64,000 nucleotides of DNA, taken from contig DUUV01000028.1 in NCBI GenBank assembly GCA_012841375.1, forward strand, positions 563-64,562, given 5' to 3'. The notes under the pieces are model-generated. The model did no database searches. It was not told where the DNA came from and saw only the letters and a list, made by a program, of their open reading frames with translations. Below are positions 3,415 through 13,803 of the stretch, in pieces. This DNA is from Candidatus Fermentithermobacillaceae bacterium. GTDB lineage: Bacteria; Bacillota; Sulfobacillia; Fermentithermobacillales; Fermentithermobacillaceae. The translations under genes and the position numbers were made by a program. The first letter of the stretch is position 1. Each line of letters opens with the position of its first letter.

Positions 3415-5301
3415 GTGAAAACCCGAGCAGCCATTTCCGGCGATCTCCGACGGGTCACGGGGCTGATAGAAAGCCCCTTCAAGACATACCTGCAACTGAG
3501 CCTCCTCTTAGTGACTGAATCGCTGGAGCCGGCGTTAGGCGCTTTCGCCTTGAAAGGTCTTCTGGATGCCTTCGTGGCGTTGAATGCTTCTCTTGTTTGG
3601 CGGGCGGCACTTGTCTTCTTTGGAGTAACGGTCTTTGGCGCGCTCATTGGAGGCACGGGCGTTTCGATGCGGGTCCGTCTCGTGGAGGAACTCGCCCGCA
3701 GGCAACGGGAGGCCTTGATGCGCTCCGGGGTCGAGATGCCCCTCCTTCAGTTCGAGAAACTCCCCCGCGGCGACTTGGCATCCAGATTGACATCTGACAT
3801 CACTGTCTCGTCACGAGTCATTACTGAATGCTATCTCCTGGCCAGGGTCGCATTGCGCGCATTCGCTGCGGCGGCGTACATGCTCACCCTGAATTGGCAA
3901 GTCGCCCTGGCTTGCGCCCTCACGGGCCCGGTTACACTGGTCGTCAGCGGAACCATTTCCAGACCTATCAACAAGCGGTCTATGGAGCTCCAGACGGCTA
4001 TCGGCCAAGTCTCGTCCGAAGCCCTCAATACGCTGGAGGGTGTCCAGGCTATCAAGTCCTTCCTGGCAGAGGACTCGGCTGAAAAACGCTTTCTCACAAG
4101 AGCGTCTGCTGTCAGGCTGGCGGCCGTGAGGATGTCCTCGGTGTTCGCGTTGAACGCCGCTTGGATGGGCACAGGTTCCCTCTTGCCATTTGCCGTCACG
4201 TTTGGGTACGGCGGTTACATGGCTGTCCAAGGCAGGCTTACCATCGGAGGGATACTGGCGCTGGTCAGCCTCTGCAACAACCTGGGCTGGCCGTTGGCGG
4301 GCATGGGACGGTCTCTGGCCAACGTTCGAAGGAGTCTCGGGGCTTTCCGCCGTGTCACTGAGATCCTGGACCTTCCGCGGGATGTGGACCCGGTCCCCGC
4401 TGACGGGCATCCTGAGCAGCATGTCATCGAGAGCGAATGGGACCTTCCGCCGGATGCGAACCTGGCCCCGGTTGAAGGGGCAGCGATCACAGAGCGCGCA
4501 GATTCACTGAGTAGAGCCGGAACCACCGACCCGTCCGCCGACGCCATACCAGAACCAGAAGACGCAGGCCTTTCGATAACCGTTCGCGGCCTTTCCTTTG
4601 AGTATATCCAAGGCACCCCTGTTCTGAAGGACATCTCCATTGAGATACCGGCCGGGTCTCTGGTTGTTCTGGCGGGGAAGAGCGGCTGCGGCAAGAGCAC
4701 TCTCATCAAGGTCCTCGCCGGGCTCTACCGCCCGTATCCCGGCACGGTGTTCATCGGAGACCGGGACCTTCACTATGAGGCGAGCTGGGCTCGCACTGTG
4801 ACTCTCTACCTGCCCCAAGAGCCCTTCCTCTTTTCAGGTTCCCTGCGGGAAAATCTTCAGTTGGCCAATGCAGAAGCCACCGAAGCCGAACTGCGACAAG
4901 CATTGTCCATCGCCGACGCCCTGGAGTTTGTTGAGCGGGATGAGGGTGGCCTGGACCGCAAAGTATCCGAGAGGGGGAGCTCATTCTCAGGTGGGGAGAG
5001 GCAGCGTCTATCCATTGCCCGGACGCTTCTCAAGAGAGGCGCGGTGCTGTTGGTCGATGAGCCGACGTCCTCGGTGGACAGAGAGTCCGAGGAGCGGATC
5101 TGGTCCAGTCTCCTCCTGGCAATGAAGGGAAAGACCTGTGTAGTCGCAACTCACCGGTTGGAGATAGCCGCGAGAGCCGACCTTGTTTTTGTGATGGACG
5201 GTGGCCGCATTGTCGAGTATGGAACCCATGCGGATCTTCATATGCCCGGGACCGTCTACAGCAGTCTCGTCGGCGAAACGGGAGGGGTGATGGCCGGATG
5301 A
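3415..5301 (+). CDS. ABC exporter subunit (TMD+NBD, MsbA/multidrug type)
   Basis: Hydrophobic N-terminal domain, Walker A GKSGCGKST, signature FSGGERQR, Walker B LLVDEPT, H-loop ATHR. Confidence 0.92.
   Translation: MKTRAAISGDLRRVTGLIESPFKTYLQLSLLLVTESLEPALGAFALKGLLDAFVALNASLVWRAALVFFGVTVFGALIGGTGVSMRVRLVEELARRQREALMRSGVEMPLLQFEKLPRGDLASRLTSDITVSSRVITECYLLARVALRAFAAAAYMLTLNWQVALACALTGPVTLVVSGTISRPINKRSMELQTAIGQVSSEALNTLEGVQAIKSFLAEDSAEKRFLTRASAVRLAAVRMSSVFALNAAWMGTGSLLPFAVTFGYGGYMAVQGRLTIGGILALVSLCNNLGWPLAGMGRSLANVRRSLGAFRRVTEILDLPRDVDPVPADGHPEQHVIESEWDLPPDANLAPVEGAAITERADSLSRAGTTDPSADAIPEPEDAGLSITVRGLSFEYIQGTPVLKDISIEIPAGSLVVLAGKSGCGKSTLIKVLAGLYRPYPGTVFIGDRDLHYEASWARTVTLYLPQEPFLFSGSLRENLQLANAEATEAELRQALSIADALEFVERDEGGLDRKVSERGSSFSGGERQRLSIARTLLKRGAVLLVDEPTSSVDRESEERIWSSLLLAMKGKTCVVATHRLEIAARADLVFVMDGGRIVEYGTHADLHMPGTVYSSLVGETGGVMAG
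4368..4482 (+). repeat. Degenerate direct repeat with 72-bp period in the TMD-NBD linker
   Basis: ggaccttccgcgggatgtggacccggtcccc at 4368 versus ggaccttccgccggatgcgaacctggcccc at 4440 (DLPRDVDPVP / DLPPDANLAP). Confidence 0.7.
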
Positions 5302-7229
5302 GTCCGAAGCCGAGCGCAAGAAACGACAAAGATGGTGGAGACGACAAAGACGGCAGGAAAGGTAAAATCGAGACAAGCGACAGAGCCCGTGAAGAAGGGG
5401 CTCGGACCGAGCGTTCCCGCGAAAAGCGGCCGGACTCTTGGAGGGATGTCCGGGATATGCTGTCGTTCCTCGGCGCCTACTGGCCCCTCTATATCGTCTG
5501 CATATTCCTTAACATATGCGCCAACCTGGCTTACGGCCCGGGCATAGCCTACTCACTGGCGGTTCTCACTGATTCCATCACCGCCAAAGAGATCTCCCTG
5601 GTGTGGAGAGCGGCTCGACTCCTCGGGCTCATGGCCGCAGCCATGGGTGCCTTGGCGGGCATATCTCACTTCCTGTCTAATTGGACGCTGGAGGCCGTCG
5701 CCCTAAACATCCGGAGGAAGGTAATGTCCAGGGCGCTAAGGGCGAACCTGTCATACTGGCACATCCAGAAGACCGGGGATACCGTATCATTGCTCGTAAA
5801 TGATACAGAGACTGCCAAGCAGGGCCTGAGCCTGCTTCACGGTCTTGTGGGAGATATCGGACTCATTGTGTCGTGCGTGGTGACCCTCATCGCCTGGGGG
5901 CCCGGCACCGCCTTGGCCCTCTTCGTCCTGGCGGCCCTCTGCATGTTTGTGGGAGCCCGTTTCGCCGAGCCGGTCGGGAAGGTGAGCGATGAGTACCAGG
6001 CTGAGACCGCGAATACCACTTCGGCCGCCACGGAGCTCTTGAGCGGGATAGCAGTGGTGAAGTCGCTGAAGGCGGAACCCATCGCCCTTGGGAGGGCTCT
6101 CAGGACTGTCGACCGGCTGTACGGGGTCGCCCGGAAGAGAGGCCGGCTGCTGGGACTTCAATACGGAGCCACCGCCATCACCCAAGGTCTTTCCTCCGTG
6201 GGCGTGCTCATCGTGGCCGCATTCTTGTCTCTACGAGGCCGGATGACCGTGGGGCAGGCCGTAGGCGTCATGCAGCTCGCGTCTCTCCCACTCAACGTGT
6301 TCGGTTCACTCGGCGAGAGCTGGGCGACGATCCAGCAGAACCTGGCGGCCAGCAGGCGGCTCAAGGTTTCCATGGAGATACCGGTTGAGCGGGACGCCGG
6401 AGACGCCCTCGCGGAGGGATCTCCTGACGCCCGTGGCGCCCTTCAACCCGACGCACGCGCTGCGCTTCATCCTGACCCCCGCATGGCGCCTCGACCTGAA
6501 GTTCAGACCGGGCTTCAGCAATCCCATGCCCACACCGCGCTTCACCCGGAGGATACAGACTTCGTGCTTGAGTTCGACTCGGTGACGTTTGGCTATGACC
6601 GGGAGAGGGCCGTCTTGGACGGAGCGTGCTTTCGGATCAGAGAGCGGCAGAAGGCAGCGCTGGTGGGCCCGAGCGGCGGCGGCAAGACATCGGTCTTGAG
6701 GCTCATCCAGGGCTTCTACGAACCGTGGGAAGGTACCATCAAGCTCCGGGGGAAGGATGTTTCGAGCATACCGCTCAAGGAGCTCAGGAGCCAGGTGGGC
6801 ATTGTCCCACAAGAGCCTTTCATCTTCCCGGGGACGGTCCGCGAGAACATCGCCATGGGAAATGAGCAGGCTTCTCTGGACGAGATCATCCGCGCGGCCA
6901 AACTCGCCAATGCCCATGAGTTCATCGCCGGACTGCCCGAAGGGTATGACACGGTGCTGGACGAACGGGGAGGCAACCTCTCCGGAGGACAGAAGCAACG
7001 GATCTGCCTTGCCAGGGCGTTTCTCAAAGACGCCGGTCTGTTGCTCTTAGATGAGCCGACGTCGTCGGTTGACGCCGAGTCCGAGGCCCTTATCCGTCAA
7101 TCGGTGGATGAGTACGCGTCCCGCAAGACGGTGCTGGCTGTGTCCCACACCGAGGGGGTTGTTGAAGGAGCCGGTGTAGTCTTGTCGGTCGCAGACGGCA
7201 AGGTGACCGAGACGCGACGACGAGACTGA
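5298..7229 (+). CDS. ABC exporter subunit (TMD+NBD), probable heterodimer partner of 3415..5301
   Basis: ATGA overlap with the upstream gene, Walker A GPSGGGKT, signature LSGGQKQR, Walker B LLLDEPT. Confidence 0.92.
   Translation: MSPKPSARNDKDGGDDKDGRKGKIETSDRAREEGARTERSREKRPDSWRDVRDMLSFLGAYWPLYIVCIFLNICANLAYGPGIAYSLAVLTDSITAKEISLVWRAARLLGLMAAAMGALAGISHFLSNWTLEAVALNIRRKVMSRALRANLSYWHIQKTGDTVSLLVNDTETAKQGLSLLHGLVGDIGLIVSCVVTLIAWGPGTALALFVLAALCMFVGARFAEPVGKVSDEYQAETANTTSAATELLSGIAVVKSLKAEPIALGRALRTVDRLYGVARKRGRLLGLQYGATAITQGLSSVGVLIVAAFLSLRGRMTVGQAVGVMQLASLPLNVFGSLGESWATIQQNLAASRRLKVSMEIPVERDAGDALAEGSPDARGALQPDARAALHPDPRMAPRPEVQTGLQQSHAHTALHPEDTDFVLEFDSVTFGYDRERAVLDGACFRIRERQKAALVGPSGGGKTSVLRLIQGFYEPWEGTIKLRGKDVSSIPLKELRSQVGIVPQEPFIFPGTVRENIAMGNEQASLDEIIRAAKLANAHEFIAGLPEGYDTVLDERGGNLSGGQKQRICLARAFLKDAGLLLLDEPTSSVDAESEALIRQSVDEYASRKTVLAVSHTEGVVEGAGVVLSVADGKVTETRRRD
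6423..6551 (+). repeat. 24-bp degenerate tandem repeat (8-aa units) in the TMD-NBD linker
   Basis: PDARGALQ / PDARAALH / PDPRMAPR / PEVQTGLQ / QSHAHTALH / PED, with units starting at 6423, 6447, 6471, 6495 and 6519. Confidence 0.75.
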
Positions 7230-7344: not shown

Positions 7345-9678
7345 CTACACGATCGCCCACAGCCCGGAGATGATTCCGGTGATGAAGAGCGTCGCGACCC
7401 AGTCTCTCCACGTGATCGCGAACGAGACCCGGTAAGTCCTGTCGCGGTAGAGCCCGAACGCCCGGCCCTCCATGGAGATCGTGAGGTTGTCCACCTTCTC
7501 CAGAGCCGATATCACCAGGGGCATGACTGTGTACTTGACGTAACGGGGGAGACTCTTTAGGCCGGCGGAGCCCACGTCAATTCCCTTGCTAAGCTGGGCG
7601 TTCCTCACCTGAACCATCTCGTATCCGAAGATCGGGATAAACCTTAAGGCCACAACCAGCATAAAGCCGTACCGGTAGGGGAGTCCTGCCTGCATTAGGG
7701 AGTAGGCCAGGTGGTTCGGGTCGGTGGTGACGACAAAAAGGAAACTGGTGAAGATGACGTTCAGGAACCGAAGGGCCAGGCCAATGCCTCTCACCAATCC
7801 CTGAGACCACACGACCACACTGACCCGGCCCAGAGAAAACAAAGGGATAGGCGTGCCTTGCTTGAAGAAGAACATCTGGGCCAGCAATACGGTGGCGGAA
7901 AACACCGTCAGGACCCTCAGCCTTCTGCGGAAGCGGTCGAACCCGGCACCGCTGAGAGCCGCCCCCAGCACCAGGGAGGCGGACAGCACGGCTTGGCGGG
8001 ATATCCCGGATGCGGAGAAAGCGAGCACGGTGATGAGGACGAGCAAGAAAGCCTTGCACAGCGGGTTCAACGAGTGGAGGAACGAATGGCCCGGCTGAAA
8101 GCCTAACACTCTGGGCGATATACCCGGACGAACACCGGCAGCGTTGTCAGCCGTGCGCCGGGAAGACTTGCTCCCAAGGCGTCCGTCCTCATCGAACTCG
8201 CTCTCGGAGTGGGCAGCGAACGGGGTGAACTCGTGCCTTCCCATCTCCCGGAGCGCTTCAAACGCCCGATCGGTGTCCGCATCGACCGCTACGCATCCGT
8301 CCTGGAGGAAAATGACTCTTGAACACATCGCTTGGACCAGCTCCGGATCATGGCAGACCATAAGGGTCGCCCCGCCTTGCCGGACGTGGGCCGCCAGTTC
8401 CTCCGCAATTGCACTCACCATATCAGGGTCCTGTCCCGTGAACGGTTCGTCCAGGAGCAGGAGCTTCCGGTCGTACACCAGGAGCGACGTCATGTTGAGG
8501 CGCTTCTTTTGCCCCATGCTGAGAGAGAAGGGACTTCTGTCCTCAAGCCCGGCCAGCCCGAACCTCTCCGTTATCTCCTGAAGTCTGCCGGAAGGGCTCT
8601 TTCCCAACCCTTCGGCCGTAAGCATGATCTCGCGGCTGACTGTGCTTTCAGACACCTGGTGATTAGGGTTCTGAAATGAGAGGCCCACAAACCCTGCCCG
8701 TTCCCGGACCGGCGTCCTCACAGCCTCTGCTCCGCCCAACGCGATAGAGCCGCCCGTCGGCTCAATGAGGCCCATGATCGTAGAAAGCAGGGTTGACTTG
8801 CCGCTCCCGTTATCGCCCATGAGAGCCACGATCTCGCCCGGCCGGATCTCGAGTGAGACATCCTGGAGCACTTGCCGCTGTCCGTACCCAGCGCACAGGT
8901 CCCTAATGGATAGAAGCGGCGGTCCCTGGCTTCCGGTCTCGTCTTTCGTCCGGACAATCCTCCCGGCAATCCGCCTGGCCGCCTGAACGAGGGGCCTGCC
9001 TTGCTCCTCGAAGACGTTCCCGTTCTCTACTCGTATCAGTCTGTCTGACAAGCGGGCGAGATGTCTCAGCCGGTGTTCCACGACCATTATCGCTGTGCCC
9101 GTCTTTTTCAGGGCGGATAGCGTGTCCAACACCGCCCGGGTACCTGACGGGTCGAGATTGGCCGTGGGTTCGTCCAAGACGATGACCTTGGGACGGAGGA
9201 CCAAAATGGAGGCTATGGCCACACGCTGCTTCTCACCGCCGGACAGGGAATAGACGTCTCTCTGGGCAAGGTGCTCCGCTCGGCAGGTCTTGAGCGCTTC
9301 CATGACCCTGCCCTCAATCTCCCGGGCAGGGACCTTCAGGTTTTCCAGGCCGAAGGCCACCTCGTCCATCACTGTCAGGGTGCAGAGCTGGGCTTCGGGA
9401 TCCTGGCGCACCATCCCGATGGTGCCCAAGAGTTGAACAGGGGAATGTGAGCGGGTATCCAGACCGCCGATCAAGACTTCGCCCGTCATCTCGCCGGCGA
9501 TGGAGTGGGGGATAAACCCTGCCATGGCCAAGCAAAGGGTGGACTTGCCGCCTCCGCTTGGCCCGGTTACGGTCGTGAACGACCCTTCGGACAGGGAGAG
9601 CGACACCCCCGACAGAGCGTGCCGTGTGCCGCCCCTGTAACGGAAGGACAAGTCCCTTATGTCTACCGCAACGTTCAC
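7345..9678 (-). CDS. Single-chain ECF module: two ATPase domains fused to an EcfT transmembrane domain
   Basis: NBD1 GPSGGGKST / LSGGEKQR / VLDEPT. NBD2 GDNGSGKST / LSMGQKKR / LLDEPF. C-terminal EcfT motifs LHSLNP..K, ALRFIP, NAQLSKG and SMEGRAF. Confidence 0.9.
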   Translation of the reverse strand: MNVAVDIRDLSFRYRGGTRHALSGVSLSLSEGSFTTVTGPSGGGKSTLCLAMAGFIPHSIAGEMTGEVLIGGLDTRSHSPVQLLGTIGMVRQDPEAQLCTLTVMDEVAFGLENLKVPAREIEGRVMEALKTCRAEHLAQRDVYSLSGGEKQRVAIASILVLRPKVIVLDEPTANLDPSGTRAVLDTLSALKKTGTAIMVVEHRLRHLARLSDRLIRVENGNVFEEQGRPLVQAARRIAGRIVRTKDETGSQGPPLLSIRDLCAGYGQRQVLQDVSLEIRPGEIVALMGDNGSGKSTLLSTIMGLIEPTGGSIALGGAEAVRTPVRERAGFVGLSFQNPNHQVSESTVSREIMLTAEGLGKSPSGRLQEITERFGLAGLEDRSPFSLSMGQKKRLNMTSLLVYDRKLLLLDEPFTGQDPDMVSAIAEELAAHVRQGGATLMVCHDPELVQAMCSRVIFLQDGCVAVDADTDRAFEALREMGRHEFTPFAAHSESEFDEDGRLGSKSSRRTADNAAGVRPGISPRVLGFQPGHSFLHSLNPLCKAFLLVLITVLAFSASGISRQAVLSASLVLGAALSGAGFDRFRRRLRVLTVFSATVLLAQMFFFKQGTPIPLFSLGRVSVVVWSQGLVRGIGLALRFLNVIFTSFLFVVTTDPNHLAYSLMQAGLPYRYGFMLVVALRFIPIFGYEMVQVRNAQLSKGIDVGSAGLKSLPRYVKYTVMPLVISALEKVDNLTISMEGRAFGLYRDRTYRVSFAITWRDWVATLFITGIISGLWAIV

Positions 9679-10709
9679 TTCACTACCAACTTGCTGACCT
9701 TCTGCACCCAGTATCCACCTTCGTAGTTTCCGGCAACCAGCCGCAAGGTATCTCCTTCTTCGATGATGATCATCCGGTCATCTGCCATCACGTCGGCAAG
9801 ATCAAAGTCAACCTGATAGCCATCGGATGCCACCACCGTCACGGTCTTTGACCCGGGCTTCGGGCCGGCCTCGCTCAAGATATCAGTGACAAGCACCCCC
9901 GTGTACTCCCTGGGGGCGACATAAGTGACCTGTCCTTTGAGCTCGGCAACTACGGTGACCTTTTCCAGCCTGGAGATGTCCACGGCGAGAGGTTTCTCCA
10001 CGTTGCCCTCCACGCCCAGCGCCGCGCCTTTCCAAGGGGCCTCATAGACATTAGTGAAGTAGTATCCTGCACCCACGGCCAACGCTACAGCCAAGGCCAG
10101 GGTGACATAACGGACTGACTTGGGCGAGGATGGGACCGAGACCGGGGCTTCCTGCATCATGCTGGGACGCACTTGGTGGACCGTTGTGAGCACCGAGTAA
10201 CCGAAGCCGCCGGCAAACAAAGCTCCCGACACCAGCGACAGAAAGGTGATGAACGCCAGGTAGCCCCATGGAGCCCCCGAGAAATACACCAACTGGAACA
10301 CAATGACGTTGGCGGCGGAGGCGATGGCGCCCCCTGTGATATAGGAGAGGACGCTGCGCCTTCTAGTACCCGCAAGCAAGAGGTCGACCACCAAACCCTG
10401 TACCAGTGACACTATGACGATGACAGACCCGTGGGTGCTGCCTGTAAGGAGTTCCACGGTGCCTTTGACCAACCCGCAAAGCGAACCTGCGCCGAAGGAC
10501 CGCACCAGTCCCGCCGCCAGCACTATCCAGAAGACATGGAGCCCGGATACGAACTGGCCCGCCCCGAACGGTACGCCGAGCAAGTTGTTCAGGAGAGTGC
10601 CAAGATAGCCCACATAGGTGCTCATGACCCCTCCCAGCCCGCTCAGGACTGCTATGATCAGGAGGTCTCTGGTGGAAAACCTGTACGGTTTCGCGGGTGC
10701 TGCTCTCAC
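9675..10709 (-). CDS. ECF S-component (YkoE-like) fused through an extra TM helix to an Oxidored_molyb-like (SUOX-fold) domain
   Basis: FSTRDLLIIAVL...GLHVFWIVLAAGLVR..GAG...VELLTG...SLVQGLVVDL fits the S-component pattern. The tail carries YTGV, ASDGY, LRLV and WVQKVSKLVV. GTGA overlaps on both sides. Confidence 0.78.
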   Translation of the reverse strand: MRAAPAKPYRFSTRDLLIIAVLSGLGGVMSTYVGYLGTLLNNLLGVPFGAGQFVSGLHVFWIVLAAGLVRSFGAGSLCGLVKGTVELLTGSTHGSVIVIVSLVQGLVVDLLLAGTRRRSVLSYITGGAIASAANVIVFQLVYFSGAPWGYLAFITFLSLVSGALFAGGFGYSVLTTVHQVRPSMMQEAPVSVPSSPKSVRYVTLALAVALAVGAGYYFTNVYEAPWKGAALGVEGNVEKPLAVDISRLEKVTVVAELKGQVTYVAPREYTGVLVTDILSEAGPKPGSKTVTVVASDGYQVDFDLADVMADDRMIIIEEGDTLRLVAGNYEGGYWVQKVSKLVVK

Positions 10710-12358
10710 CTCGGTCTCACCTCCAGTCTGACCACGTTCTTAACCCATCTGGCGCCGGCCGATTCATATATGCCCCAGCCTTGACCTTCGACTGACGTAC
10801 CGGCGCAATCATCATTGCTGTAGACTCCGTCCGGCGGAAAGAAAGCGATCCTGTAGCCTTCCTGCCAATCGGGCGGCGTCTTTCCATCCGCGCTGAGGGC
10901 CACTATCATGTCACCCTGGATCTCAAGCCATGAGTCGTCGGGGAACACGTTCCGGTACGAGAATTCCTGAGCGTACCCGTCGGACGCGTAAACCACCAGG
11001 GTATCGGACTCTTCCATCCCGCCTACAAGGTCCAGGAGCACTCTCACCGGCACTCCACGATACAGCCTCTCGGCGCTCAGGTTCTCATAGCGGTTTTGAT
11101 ACTTGACCTTTGCTTCCCGCGTTTCGAGTCCCGAAAGCTCTTCCAGTGAGAGGAGCATCTCTCCGCCTTTGCCGCTGAGCACCAGATCATCGCTTGCGTA
11201 ACCGGCAGGCTTCTCGACAGGGGTGACCGTTATCCCGGCGGGTGTGGCCTCTACCACGGCAAAGTGATGGAAGCCGCCATCCTGGGGAGAGGCGTAGAGA
11301 CCAGCGCCGCCTCCACCGCTGGTAACGAACGTCACGCCTTCGACTGCGTTCTGGCTGAACATGTGGACGTGGCCGTTGAAGACGGCTTTGACCACGTTCT
11401 CAGGGTCGGTCAACACATCCAAAAGGGAAGCGGCCTCAACCTGGTCCAAGAAGCAGTGGTCTTCGCCCCGGGGGTCAAAGGGCGGCACGTGCATGAACAC
11501 GAGCTTGGGTGACCCCGACGCCCCCAGCGTCTCACGAAGCCAGGAAAGCCCCTCGGGACCGAGTCCCAGGGAGGAGGTATCCAGGAAAACCACTCTCCAT
11601 CCCGCGTAGTCAAAGTAGCGGTTGGGCTGACCAAATCTCGCCTGAAAGAGATCACTGTCAGAATCCCTGACATCGTGGTTTCCCGGAACCGCGAAGCACG
11701 GGACGCCAAGAGCCGAGAGCGCCTCATCGAACGCCTCGAACTCCCGCGAAGCGCCCGATGGGGTCATATCGCCCAGGTGCACAAGGAATTCCGCTTCGGA
11801 TTCGTTGATCAGTGGGACCATACTGCTAAAAACATTGTTTCGTCCCTGGGTGTCGCCTATGACCGCGAAGCGCAGCGGCTCTGTCTCTTGAGGCGTGGTT
11901 TCAAGGATGATCCTCCCGGAGCCCCTTTTCACCAAAACTTCCATGGAGGTGGGGGAGAGCCTCTTGGTTTCGATCACGGGCTCCGCGCCGGGTCGGTTCG
12001 AGCCTGCCTCAGGGCCATGAACCTCTATCGAGACAGCATCCGCCCTGATGTTCAATACCGATATGGTGAACGTCCGCCTGTCCGACGGGTCTCTCTCCAG
12101 ATCGACGCGAAGCGTCGTGGACAGCGCCTTCACAACGGCACTATCACGGGTCACACTTTGGGCCAAGCCTCCTGTCACGGACAGTTTGGGATCGGGGAGA
12201 TCCTTGCAGCCCGAGAGGCCGGCGGCCAAGACAAGGATAGCCAGGACCGTCCAAGCCGCCACCAGGGGCTGCGCCCCGTAGAACCGCCTGAAAGGACTCA
12301 AGCGAGTCCGGCGAGGTCTCACGGCTCGCGCCCGCGATGCTTTGGGAAAGATGGTCAT
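10706..12358 (-). CDS. Lipoprotein: calcineurin-like metallophosphoesterase fused to a C-terminal Oxidored_molyb-like domain
   Basis: Lipobox LSGC. Phosphoesterase motifs GDTQG, HLGD, GNHD, FMH and GHVH. C-terminal YRGVPV, ASDGY, YRIAF and WVKNVVRLEV. Confidence 0.82.
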   Translation of the reverse strand: MTIFPKASRARAVRPRRTRLSPFRRFYGAQPLVAAWTVLAILVLAAGLSGCKDLPDPKLSVTGGLAQSVTRDSAVVKALSTTLRVDLERDPSDRRTFTISVLNIRADAVSIEVHGPEAGSNRPGAEPVIETKRLSPTSMEVLVKRGSGRIILETTPQETEPLRFAVIGDTQGRNNVFSSMVPLINESEAEFLVHLGDMTPSGASREFEAFDEALSALGVPCFAVPGNHDVRDSDSDLFQARFGQPNRYFDYAGWRVVFLDTSSLGLGPEGLSWLRETLGASGSPKLVFMHVPPFDPRGEDHCFLDQVEAASLLDVLTDPENVVKAVFNGHVHMFSQNAVEGVTFVTSGGGGAGLYASPQDGGFHHFAVVEATPAGITVTPVEKPAGYASDDLVLSGKGGEMLLSLEELSGLETREAKVKYQNRYENLSAERLYRGVPVRVLLDLVGGMEESDTLVVYASDGYAQEFSYRNVFPDDSWLEIQGDMIVALSADGKTPPDWQEGYRIAFFPPDGVYSNDDCAGTSVEGQGWGIYESAGARWVKNVVRLEVRPR

Positions 12359-12448
12359 CCGGGATCACCTTCTCGCGACAGGACGGCCGCCGCATGGGAG
12401 TCTCCTTGACTCAAGGCCCTGGAGCGGCCGCCTGTGCGGTTATTGTCC

Positions 12449-13465
12449 TTATTCCGGCAGGTTCACCAGTCTGATCTCGGCAATCTGCTTAACCCCGTGC
12501 TTCTTGCTGGGCAAGCCGGAACCGACCAATCTGAGGGGGCCTTCATCCTCGCCCAGAGGTTTCCCGTCGACTTTGTAGGCAACGATGATGTCCGCGTTGT
12601 AGGCAACCTCCTGGGAAGTGAATTCGACAGTCATGCCGTCTGCCGCGACCACCTCAATGGTGTAGCCCTTGTCTGCCAGACCTTTGTTGAAGAGGTAATG
12701 CCCTCCTTCGGCATCGCCACCGTCGAACATGGATATGACGAGCCAGAGGGGCACCCCCTCATAGACGATAGCGTCGCCTTCTTTGGTCGTCGTCTCAAAT
12801 GTCGCGGCAGGATGGGGAGTATCGGGGCATTCGGCCATGCTTTCGAAGCTCGAGCGGTCCAGCCCAACCGACTCCACTCCGGTCAGGGCGATCTCCCAAT
12901 CCGACAGCCCCTCAACCACAGTCAACTCGGCGACGGACTTTACCCAGAAGTGTCCGTCAGAGACGGCTCCATCGGGCGAAGAGAACCCGAGCCTGGGAAG
13001 CTCGGACGAGAATAGATCGCCGTCGCTGGATGTGATCAACATGGTGTCGAGGTCTGTCACCTTGAGGGCCTGGCCGTCTTCACCGTAGACCATGAGAAGT
13101 CCCTTGACCTGCTCATATGTGAGGGTCATCGTGTAGCCGTCGGATGCGGTGACGGCCAGAGCGTCGTCCTCGGTGAAGCCGCCTGCCTTCTCAAGGACTT
13201 CGTCGATGCTTACGCCCGAGAACGTGTCGGGACCGACAATGGTGCCCGTGGTCTTTATGAAACCACCTTTGCCGTCTTTAACCTCAAGAGAAGAAAGGTC
13301 GATTTCGTGGGAAGTACCGTCCCTGGCGACAACCCGAACAGAGTAGGACGGCGATGCCGGGGGATCGGGCGGCGTGGGATTGGCCTCACCGCAGGCCGCC
13401 AGAAGAACCATGGACAACACGAGGGCTAAGCCCAAGAAAACCGGTGTTCTTCGCTTCAAGCTCAC
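12449..13465 (-). CDS. Lipoprotein with two tandem Oxidored_molyb-like (SUOX-fold) domains
   Basis: GGAGG RBS before GTG 13465 and lipobox LAAC. Domain 1: FSGV, ASDGY, PRLG, WVKSVAEL. Domain 2: YEGVPL, AADG, GPLRLV, GVKQIAEI. Confidence 0.8.
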   Translation of the reverse strand: MSLKRRTPVFLGLALVLSMVLLAACGEANPTPPDPPASPSYSVRVVARDGTSHEIDLSSLEVKDGKGGFIKTTGTIVGPDTFSGVSIDEVLEKAGGFTEDDALAVTASDGYTMTLTYEQVKGLLMVYGEDGQALKVTDLDTMLITSSDGDLFSSELPRLGFSSPDGAVSDGHFWVKSVAELTVVEGLSDWEIALTGVESVGLDRSSFESMAECPDTPHPAATFETTTKEGDAIVYEGVPLWLVISMFDGGDAEGGHYLFNKGLADKGYTIEVVAADGMTVEFTSQEVAYNADIIVAYKVDGKPLGEDEGPLRLVGSGLPSKKHGVKQIAEIRLVNLPE

Positions 13466-13534
13466 ATACACCTCCGTGTGAAAGTAACCGATCTTTGATA
13501 GGAGCATGGGGCCATTGTGTAGTAGCCGGTAGGG

Positions 13535-13564
13535 TCATCCATACGGAGGCACACCAATACGCAT
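13535..13564 (-). other. Possible 9-codon leader ORF (MRIGVPPYG*) behind the riboswitch Shine-Dalgarno
   Basis: GGAAAGGAG-tggttcaa-ATG CGT ATT GGT GTG CCT CCG TAT GGA TGA on the minus strand. Confidence 0.35.
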
Positions 13565-13571
13565 TTGAACC

Positions 13572-13667
13572 ACTCCTTTCCAAATACGGGAGGCCCAGGC
13601 GTTTCCGCCAAGACCCTATCGGCCGCCCCGCCGTGGCCCTACTGCTTTAGGCAAGACGGCTCGGAGT
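13572..13667 (-). ncRNA. Moco/Tuco riboswitch (Moco RNA motif), P3-less variant
   Basis: ACUCCGA-GCCGUCUUGC-CUAA..-GCGGGGCGGC-CGAU-AGGGU..GGCG GAAA CGCC..GCCUCCCGUAUUUGGAAAGGAGU. P1 ACUCC/GGAGU, a fully paired 10-bp P2, a GNRA-capped P4, and the hallmark CCUCCCGUAUUUGGAAAGG 3' tract. Confidence 0.88.
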
Positions 13668-13803
13668 CGCGCCTCATTGTTTCGACACCGGGAGCGCGAA
13701 ATCCTTCGGAGGAAAGCGGGTTCATGCTGTGCAGCGTACCGGTGATTACCGTCATGTAGCAGGGCTGTATTAGCCGTTCGCCCCGCCGGCCTCCGCCCAA
13801 ACT

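Follow-up and report, generated by a model that had tools for sequence, protein, structure and literature searches.

Gene organization of the locus

The DNA analyzed here is a stretch of 64,000 nucleotides of contig DUUV01000028.1 from Candidatus Fermentithermobacillaceae bacterium, in the following called the window. Three consecutive genes on its minus strand (9675-13465) encode four domains which resemble the fold of sulfite oxidase (SUOX), and a fourth gene lies behind them; these domains and the putative transporter to which they belong are the subject of this work. The boundaries given in the initial annotation are exact, 9675 being the stop of the third gene and 13465 the GTG start of the first. 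The last two gene junctions of the operon are 4-nt overlaps.

The first gene (12449..13465; all features of the window described below lie on the minus strand) codes for a lipoprotein of 338 amino acids counted from the GTG, with the lipobox LAAC and a match to PF00174, and comprises two SUOX-like domains. D1 (12914..13345), supported by hhalign and by its match to the PruR structure 7kom, contains the hairpin tip KTTGT and the motifs ASDGY and DGHFWVK. D2 (12452..12907; PF00174 and hhalign) contains the hairpin FETTTKEG, the motifs AADGM and HGVKQ, and upstream of the hairpin the residues C227 and H232. The second gene (10706..12358) encodes a lipoprotein of 550 amino acids with the lipobox LSGC, in which a metallophosphoesterase (PF00149, E 1.4e-15) is fused to a SUOX-like domain. 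The catalytic domain is of the calcineurin type (PF00149, 11243..11890) and its five motifs, GD, GD, GNHD, H and GHxH, are all invariant in 39 homologues. The C-terminal SUOX-like domain of this protein (10712..11188), recognized with AlphaFold2 and Foldseek, has the hairpin YQNRYEN, the motifs ASDGY and GARWVK and an insert with C518.

The third gene (9675-10709) codes for a YkoE-type S component of an energy-coupling factor (ECF) transporter (PF09819, E 9.5e-18) with an extra domain at its C-terminus. Its core and a seventh transmembrane (TM) helix are encoded at 10044..10685, as judged from PF09819, the YkoE structure 5edl of the PDB and hydropathy. The SUOX-like domain following the helix, in the following S-domain (9678..10034; PF00174), has the hairpin AELKGQ and the motifs ASDGY and GGYWVQK. 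The fourth gene (7345..9678) encodes the energizing module with EcfA, EcfA' and EcfT in one chain (two ABC_tran domains and CbiQ), whose ATPase parts are matched by the ECF_ATPase models at E 1e-92 to 1e-95. The S component, two EcfA ATPase domains and EcfT are encoded together, as in the dedicated (group I) ECF importers. The operon departs from the usual importer of this group by the external domain on the S component and by the two lipoproteins with the same kind of domain. A haem or Fe-S redox partner is not encoded in the operon.

Both lipoproteins start with a hydrophobic signal segment which ends in the lipobox. The S component consists of the six-helix YkoE core (5edl, E 6.9e-8) and one additional TM segment (residues 201-219) ahead of the domain. 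In ECF S components the N- and the C-terminus are both cytoplasmic. Since a seventh helix has been added to such a core, the S-domain should be located outside the cell. The expectation of the initial annotation that all four copies are extracytoplasmic agrees with the lipoboxes LAAC and LSGC and with this seventh helix.

The four domains adopt the SUOX fold

Two of the three proteins exceed the curated cut-off of 24 bits of PF00174 (Oxidored_molyb), namely the lipoprotein with two matching stretches (E 7.6e-10, 39.1 bits) and the S component (E 1.5e-6, 28.4 bits); the phosphoesterase fusion gives a weak match below the cut-off (E 0.03, 14.3 bits). The best stretch of the lipoprotein (234-349) is contributed by D2, which covers positions 56-162 only of the model, and the S-domain covers positions 14-159 with 112 residues. 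The domains have a size of 115-160 residues, compared with about 170 Pfam positions plus an N-terminal segment for a complete domain of the molybdenum cofactor (Moco) enzymes. All four are shortened: the N-terminal segment is missing and about a third of the domain is gone.

We built a profile for each domain type from homologues in a collection of 5.8 billion proteins. Profile-profile comparison with hhalign relates the S-domain to D1 (97.9%, E 6e-13), to D2 (97.2%, E 2.8e-11) and to the SUOX-like domain of the phosphoesterase (95.8%, E 8e-9). Against sequences of known structure, the S-domain profile by sequence alone finds SoxC (2xts, E 6.8e-8) and SorA (E 9e-5), the D2 profile matches plant sulfite oxidase (1ogp, E 0.0024), and the best match of D1 is PruR (7kom, E 0.023).

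AlphaFold2 models were obtained for the lipoprotein (pLDDT 89.2) and for the C-terminal domain of the phosphoesterase (pLDDT 94.0, pTM 0.90). When both models were compared with the PDB using Foldseek, SUOX-fold structures alone stood at the top, with the PruR structures 7kou, 7kom and 7rkb first (E 1e-7 to 1e-5). The leading PruR matches (7kou, 7kos, 7kom, 7kp2, 7rkb) reach a TM-score of up to 0.75 on the target, and they are followed by YedY (1xdq/1xdy), SorA (2ca3/2blf), SoxC (2xts), SorT and nitrate reductase; all of these matches, PruR included, have a probability of 1.00. For the phosphoesterase domain 7kom is matched at E 1.6e-7 and the top 28 matches all have the SUOX fold. Pfam, profile-profile comparison and the AlphaFold2/Foldseek analysis therefore all bear out the four SUOX-fold-like domains of the initial annotation, which had asked for structure prediction as a check; both models show the fold.

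The molybdenum-ligating cysteine is missing

In the SUOX enzymes the cysteine which ligates the molybdenum is located in a beta-hairpin leading into the W/Y-x-G-V motif, and in PruR its position is taken by the Trp of a PW motif (PMC11194511). We therefore searched for the corresponding residue in each domain. In D1 the canonical position falls on the T of KTTGT (alignment of hidden Markov models (HMMs), with the PW of PruR on G-T), and in the phosphoesterase domain on N426 of YQNRYEN (PW of the PruR structure 7rkb on G-N426). In D2 it is K or E, as seen from the pattern IETTTPW of K. pneumoniae PruR (7rkb) against FETTTKE, and in the S-domain a chain of hhalign alignments places it within AELKGQVT. 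None of the four domains has a cysteine in the hairpin, and the hairpin cysteine is also absent across 120 homologues of the S component. The PW motif was not found in the four domains either, the residues at this position being G-T, G-N, K-E or K-G-Q.

The claim that the four copies are without the Mo-ligating cysteine thus holds for the whole hairpin, and the four motifs named for this position (ELKGQ, YQNRY, FIKTT, FETTT) were right to within a few residues. The S-domain and D1 have no cysteine at all, and D2 and the phosphoesterase domain have one each, C227 and C518. It had been stated that the only cysteines lie elsewhere, which is correct for D2 and the phosphoesterase domain; what has to be amended is that these residues are not incidental. 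C227 is retained in 29 of 40 homologues and is close to an invariant His232, and C518 is retained in 37 of 41 homologues within an insert of the pattern N-x-D-C-x-x-T-S. These conserved non-canonical cysteines are a caveat on a reading of the domains as carriers.

We considered C227 as a displaced Mo ligand, since its distance from Y-E-G-V is similar to the one seen in sulfite oxidase. It is probably not the canonical ligand: the secondary structure of the AlphaFold2 model puts it into coil before strand A of the hairpin, and the pattern IETTTPW of K. pneumoniae PruR would place the canonical position 15-16 residues downstream.

A further cysteine is found just past TM7 in 96 of the 120 S-component homologues, within W-x-G-P-x-C. 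In the window this position is Leu231 (10017-10019), and the nearest relative also has Leu.

Residues of a possible pterin site

In PruR the pterin is sandwiched by Tyr104 and Trp160 and receives a hydrogen bond from Asn102 (PMC11194511). The N-D-Y of Vibrio vulnificus PruR, an instance of the N-x-Y motif, is aligned with D-G-Y in the domains of the window, and their C-terminal Trp was matched to W160 of PruR from its position alone. All 120 sequences of the S-component family have the D-G-Y as well as the Trp of the C-terminal strand W-V-K (D296, G297, Y298 and W334). The D1 family has an invariant D, Y and H, and W in 37 of 40 members; in the family of the phosphoesterase domain D-G-Y and the C-terminal Trp are nearly invariant. 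Three of the four domains thus appear to keep the pair of Tyr and Trp which stacks on the pterin in PruR, the assignment being inferred for the Trp. In the D2 family the first stacking position is Tyr or Phe in 33 of 40 homologues.

The tip of the hairpin, where the Mo-ligating cysteine would be, has its own set of invariant residues in each domain type. This argues for a constrained ligand site in each of them.

A P3-less riboswitch precedes the operon

Upstream of the first gene we identified the aptamer of a riboswitch for the molybdenum or tungsten cofactor (Moco/Tuco) as the operon leader (13557..13678; RF01055, 79.5 bits, E 1.3e-17, with a gathering threshold of 36 bits). The aptamer ends 92 nt before the start codon of the lipoprotein on the same strand, and it is the one match to RF01055 in the whole genome. 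The P3 positions of the RF01055 model are deleted in it. Nine further RF01055 matches in related loci are P3-less too, and in 10 of 10 aligned aptamers P2, which covaries, runs straight to the AGGGT junction with no P3.

A possible expression platform is located at 13471..13549. There CCUCCGU (13549-13543) is complementary to the Shine-Dalgarno sequence ACGGAGG (13477-13471), 5 nt ahead of the GTG, so that the two could pair; this assignment is suggested by the complementarity. The minimum free energy fold of the leader did not reproduce the aptamer and did not resolve an expression platform, and a scan of the leader for terminators gave nothing convincing.

Moco RNAs without P3 have been linked to the tungsten cofactor, and two such RNAs upstream of genes annotated as putative sulphite oxidases in Syntrophomonas wolfei were left as an unexplained exception (Regulski 2008, PMC2408646). 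The gene family described here may offer an explanation of this exception.

Cofactor genes in the genome

The assembly to which the window belongs (2.37 Mb, 157 contigs, 97.8% complete, 1.4% contaminated) was searched in six frames with HMMs for genes of cofactor synthesis and use. There are three intact genes for tungstoenzymes of the AOR family, and the matches to PF00174 found in the genome lie in this operon only. MoaC, the C-terminal domain of MoaA, MoaE and MoeA (MoeA_N) gave zero matches. The single match to MoCF_biosynth, possibly MogA or MoaB, turned out to be CinA. Likewise, tblastn searches with the Moco clusters (MoeA/MoaC) of two relatives found nothing in the genome, and neither did tblastn searches with TupA, TupB and MOT1 of a relative. 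Two matches to SBP_bac_11, possible ModA or WtpA proteins, are a PotD-like protein and the PstS of a pst-phoU operon. The latter is a complete phosphate-uptake operon, pstS-pstC-pstA-pstB-pstB-phoU (contig C128, 34360-39413).

By these searches the organism has AOR tungstoenzymes without detectable pterin synthesis or metal insertion, and no detectable uptake of tungstate or molybdate of the types looked for (TupA/TupB, MOT1 and binding proteins of the ModA/WtpA type). The metagenome-assembled genome (MAG) of its closest relative shows the same absences.

Conservation of the system in other genomes

We scanned one genome per species, with Thermovorax and Desulfuribacillus added by exact look-up; 26 other genomes proved to carry the fused S component. 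The bacterial carriers are Bacillota MAGs, Anoxynatronum, Syntrophomonadales, Dethiobacteria, Desulfitobacteriaceae, Thermovorax and Desulfuribacillus, the archaeal ones Methanocella, Hermodarchaeota and Promethearchaeota. A locus of Nitrososphaeria (L033) was dropped as its S component is without the fused domain. As judged with purpose-built domain HMMs, further SUOX-like proteins with one to five domains each are encoded beside the S component in 26 of 27 loci, and the phosphoesterase is also present in 17 of 27. Of 21 bacterial loci, 8 have an RF01055 match within the flanks that were fetched, and in L015 and L035 it is located directly upstream. The family is small: a search of 1.84 billion cluster representatives for the fused S component gave only 371 matches with an E value of 1e-3 or below, and a few dozen of these, counted from the best-stretch column, are full length. 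In relatives, SUOX-like domains also occur on proteins with the cell-surface modules SLH, Big_2 and Cu_amine_oxidN1.

Between 1 and 10 AOR genes are present in every one of the 26 other carrier genomes. MoaC is absent in 9 of the 26 and both MoaC and MoeA in 7, which include the closest relative, all four Asgard MAGs and two further Bacillota MAGs. A strict link of the system to cofactor auxotrophy was rejected, since 17 of the 26 keep MoaC.

Several loci deserve a separate description. At L010:12254-13037 and L011:12254-13037 (Anoxynatronum buryatiense and A. sibiricum) a second P3-less Moco riboswitch lies just downstream of the operon with the fused S component and immediately precedes the gene for another ECF S component, a separate protein of 178 amino acids of the PF12822 type. 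This protein may be a second cofactor-related S component which shares the energizing module. Two small genes downstream of the Anoxynatronum operon have no Pfam family. In two Bacillota MAGs (L017:1101-10451 and L020:985-10400) a single riboswitch-led operon contains a TupA-like binding protein, a permease and an ATPase (tupABC-like), MFS_MOT1, the phosphoesterase fusion and the ECF genes; past this operon a second riboswitch lies upstream of a gene for a dockerin-containing protein.

In Desulfuribacillus alkaliarsenatis (L034:388-8298) the genes for an importer of FecCD, an ABC ATPase and Peripla_BP_2 immediately precede those for four SUOX-like proteins and the ECF operon, after which comes a cluster of FdhE, cysteine desulfurase, an Fe-S protein and cytochrome b. 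In Thermovorax subterraneus (L035:1146-9949) SUOX-like domains reside on surface proteins with S-layer homology, Big_2 and Cu_amine_oxidN1 modules, a pair of MotA/ExbB and DUF2149 lies between the surface proteins, and the phosphoesterase gene is immediately preceded by the riboswitch (5201-5320). The archaeal fused S component was seen in MAGs of Hermodarchaeota and Promethearchaeota (L021-L024, L028) and in Methanocella sp. MCL-LM (L030). The Asgard MAGs encode a protein with two SUOX-like domains of the phosphoesterase type ahead of the S component, the phosphoesterase itself being absent; these four MAGs have 4-10 AOR genes and no match to MoaC or MoeA. At L027:6998-8069 two overlapping open reading frames, one for the core and one for the domain, take the place of a single gene for the fused S component; this is a frameshift or an assembly error in this MAG.

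A putative importer for a tungsten or molybdenum pterin cofactor

Taking the domains and their genomic context together, we consider it probable that the four domains serve, without catalytic activity, to capture the ready-made tungsten or molybdenum pterin cofactor and to hand it over within an importer for it. The initial annotation had already read them as an enzyme fold reused for a non-catalytic cofactor-binding or carrier module. Support for this idea comes from the truncation of the domains, from the hairpin without a Mo-ligating cysteine and from the PruR proteins as the closest structures, and also from the D/N-x-Y and Trp residues apparently kept in three of four domains, the signals for export, the fusion to a transporter subunit and the host without a Moco pathway. 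What points to the cargo is context that the initial annotation did not have, namely the Tuco-type Moco riboswitch, the ECF importer and a genome with AOR enzymes but without the cofactor pathway. The missing cysteine fits a carrier that must release its ligand.

In such a system the two-domain lipoprotein and the phosphoesterase lipoprotein would catch cofactor released from other cells. We would speculate that the phosphoesterase, being fused to a binding domain and having invariant motifs, is placed to trim dinucleotide or phosphorylated forms of the catch, e.g., by cleaving off a phosphate or, from a dinucleotide form, the nucleotide. The domain on the YkoE-type S component would then take the ligand and hand it over to the pocket in the membrane, and uptake would be driven by EcfA-A'-T. 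Inside the cell the imported cofactor would bind to the P3-less Moco/Tuco riboswitch and switch the operon off. In the window's organism the cargo would be a metal-loaded cofactor, most likely a tungsten-pterin for the three AOR enzymes. It would have to be metal-loaded because the genome contains neither a pterin pathway nor an enzyme for metal insertion.

Several observations weigh against this proposal. D2 of the window has Met and Gly for the two stacking residues, the domains fall short of the length of a full Moco domain, and PruR, which binds small pterins, has been reported to be unable to accommodate Moco (PMC11194511). As Moco genes are usually clustered, one contig lost from a MAG of 157 contigs could conceal them, and the absences in the other carriers rest on MAGs without completeness figures. 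With MoaC kept in 17 and MoeA in 19 of the 26 other carriers, there is no fixed tie of the system to auxotrophy. Because of its high sensitivity to oxygen, the cofactor could plausibly be taken up in anoxic habitats only. It is also a difficulty that an imported mono-pterin would have to be converted into the bis-pterin center of AOR without proteins of the MoeA/MobA type.

Riboswitch-controlled importers often carry precursors of the cofactor which is sensed, as YkoEDC does with thiamine precursors. The main rival explanation is that the same machine imports a metal-free or partial pterin, which might be molybdopterin, its dephospho form, cyclic pyranopterin monophosphate (cPMP) or a degradation product. 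This would fit with such precursor import being common, with the phosphoesterase, which suggests the processing of a phosphorylated form, and with MoeA in those 19 carriers, which could metalate an imported pterin. Moreover truncated sites of the PruR type, to which Foldseek matches the present domains, hold small pterins (PMC11194511). In the window's genome and in seven others, however, MoaE and/or MoeA are absent and neither cPMP nor a metal-free pterin could be finished, and a tungstate or molybdate transporter of the types searched was not found in the window's genome. We regard this explanation as unlikely, although it is the one that has to be taken most seriously.

It could also be that the ECF system imports tungstate or molybdate and that the SUOX-like domains bind the oxyanion. 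Moco riboswitches commonly control molybdate and tungstate transporters (PMC2408646), and the operons of L017 and L020 combine the ECF genes with tupABC-like and MOT1-type genes. But with oxyanion transporters already present in L017 a third one would be redundant there, S components of the YkoE type have an organic heteroaromatic compound as their ligand, and the conserved residues are those which hold the pterin ring in PruR. Free tungstate would moreover be useless to the window's organism, in which MoeA and a pterin pathway are missing. This makes the import of an oxyanion improbable.

Even less credit can be given to the idea that the domains are true extracytoplasmic molybdenum or tungsten oxidoreductases with another ligand, e.g., the Cys/His of D2 or Cys518. 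The PF00174 matches above the cut-off and the conserved non-canonical Cys and His residues would be in line with it. Against it speak the length of 115-160 residues with a shortened hairpin and the N-terminal segment of the Moco domain gone, two of four domains without any cysteine, a host unable to make the cofactor, one copy joined to a transporter subunit, and an operon which encodes no haem or Fe-S redox partner. Finally, that the domains are PruR-like sensors of excreted pterins which regulate another protein instead of aiding transport is the least probable explanation of all. In its favor, PruR proteins are the best structural matches. Against it, neither the operon nor 27 related loci encode a DcpA-type cyclase/phosphodiesterase, a kinase of the TorS/BaeS type or another histidine kinase as a partner, the domains are without the PW motif and are joined to an S component and a phosphoesterase, and the operon is under a Moco riboswitch.

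Comparison with known systems

Non-catalytic pterin-binding proteins with the SUOX fold are already known since PruR was described in 2024. PruR of Agrobacterium, Vibrio and Klebsiella (PMC11194511) is, like the domains described here, a small exported SUOX fold with a shortened hairpin and without the Mo-ligating cysteine. It is non-catalytic, holds the pterin between the Tyr of N-x-Y and a C-terminal Trp, and gave the best Foldseek match of both models. Unlike the proteins of the window, it is a single domain with a PW motif, is encoded in a two-gene operon with the cyclase/phosphodiesterase DcpA and binds pterins of the monapterin type as a signal. The window's domains are tandem or fused, have the hairpins KTTGT, AELKGQ and N..GN, and would assist a transporter whose operon is controlled by a Moco riboswitch. 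On the sequence level they are only weakly similar to PruR (E 0.023 at best) and are nearer to SoxC and SorA.

The SUOX enzymes YedY/MsrP (1xdq), SorA (2blf), SorT (4pw3), SoxC (2xts) and sulfite oxidase (1sox, 1ogp) have the same fold and share the motifs W/Y-x-G-V, D-G-x, R-L-V-x-G and W-V-K with the domains of the window. They differ in having the full Moco domain, the Mo-ligating cysteine in the hairpin, cytoplasmic loading of the cofactor and redox partners.

The nearest known transporter is YkoEDC, a dedicated (group I) ECF importer for thiamine precursors, which is controlled by a thiamine pyrophosphate (TPP) riboswitch. It resembles the present system in its PF09819 S component (YkoE, 5edl), in the duplicated ATPase and the T component beside it, and in a riboswitch whose sensed cofactor is akin to what is imported. 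Neither YkoE nor other ECF S components are known to need an extracytoplasmic binding protein. In contrast, the system of the window has a seventh helix and an external binding domain on the S component, lipoprotein binding modules, a surface phosphoesterase, the fused A-A'-T and a Moco/Tuco riboswitch. The logic of binding a scarce and fragile cofactor and passing it on to a transporter or an apo-enzyme is also known from surface lipoproteins that capture vitamins, such as BtuG of Bacteroides, and from the Moco carrier protein of Chlamydomonas. Their folds and sequences are unrelated to those of the present domains, and the partner is either the TonB-dependent BtuB or there is no transporter. 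New in the present case are the tandem and fused copies, which would serve an ECF importer controlled by a Moco/Tuco riboswitch.

Implications

Full-text literature searches found no description of a prokaryotic importer for Moco, Tuco or molybdopterin, the nearest mention of a Moco importer being one speculative sentence on the type 11 secretion system (T11SS). It is generally held that most organisms must make the molybdenum or tungsten cofactor themselves and that it is not taken up as a nutrient (PMC9026282). We see about even chances that the operon belongs to a prokaryotic system for taking up the finished tungsten or molybdenum pterin cofactor, the first that can be recognised, that the window's organism, its closest relative, two further Bacillota MAGs and four Asgard MAGs are natural auxotrophs which run their AOR enzymes on cofactor scavenged from neighbours, and that the domains are the first external binding domains for ECF transporters.

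If this is true, an ECF transporter would be able to use external binding modules, and the sulphite oxidase exception of the 2008 Moco riboswitch paper would be resolved. The protein family would bind the free cofactor reversibly and could be useful for handling this extremely labile molecule. Genomes with tungstoenzymes and yet no cofactor pathway would be accounted for, and the view that the cofactor is not taken up would be overturned for anaerobic bacteria and archaea. Moco and Tuco would then join the cofactors which are cross-fed in anoxic communities.

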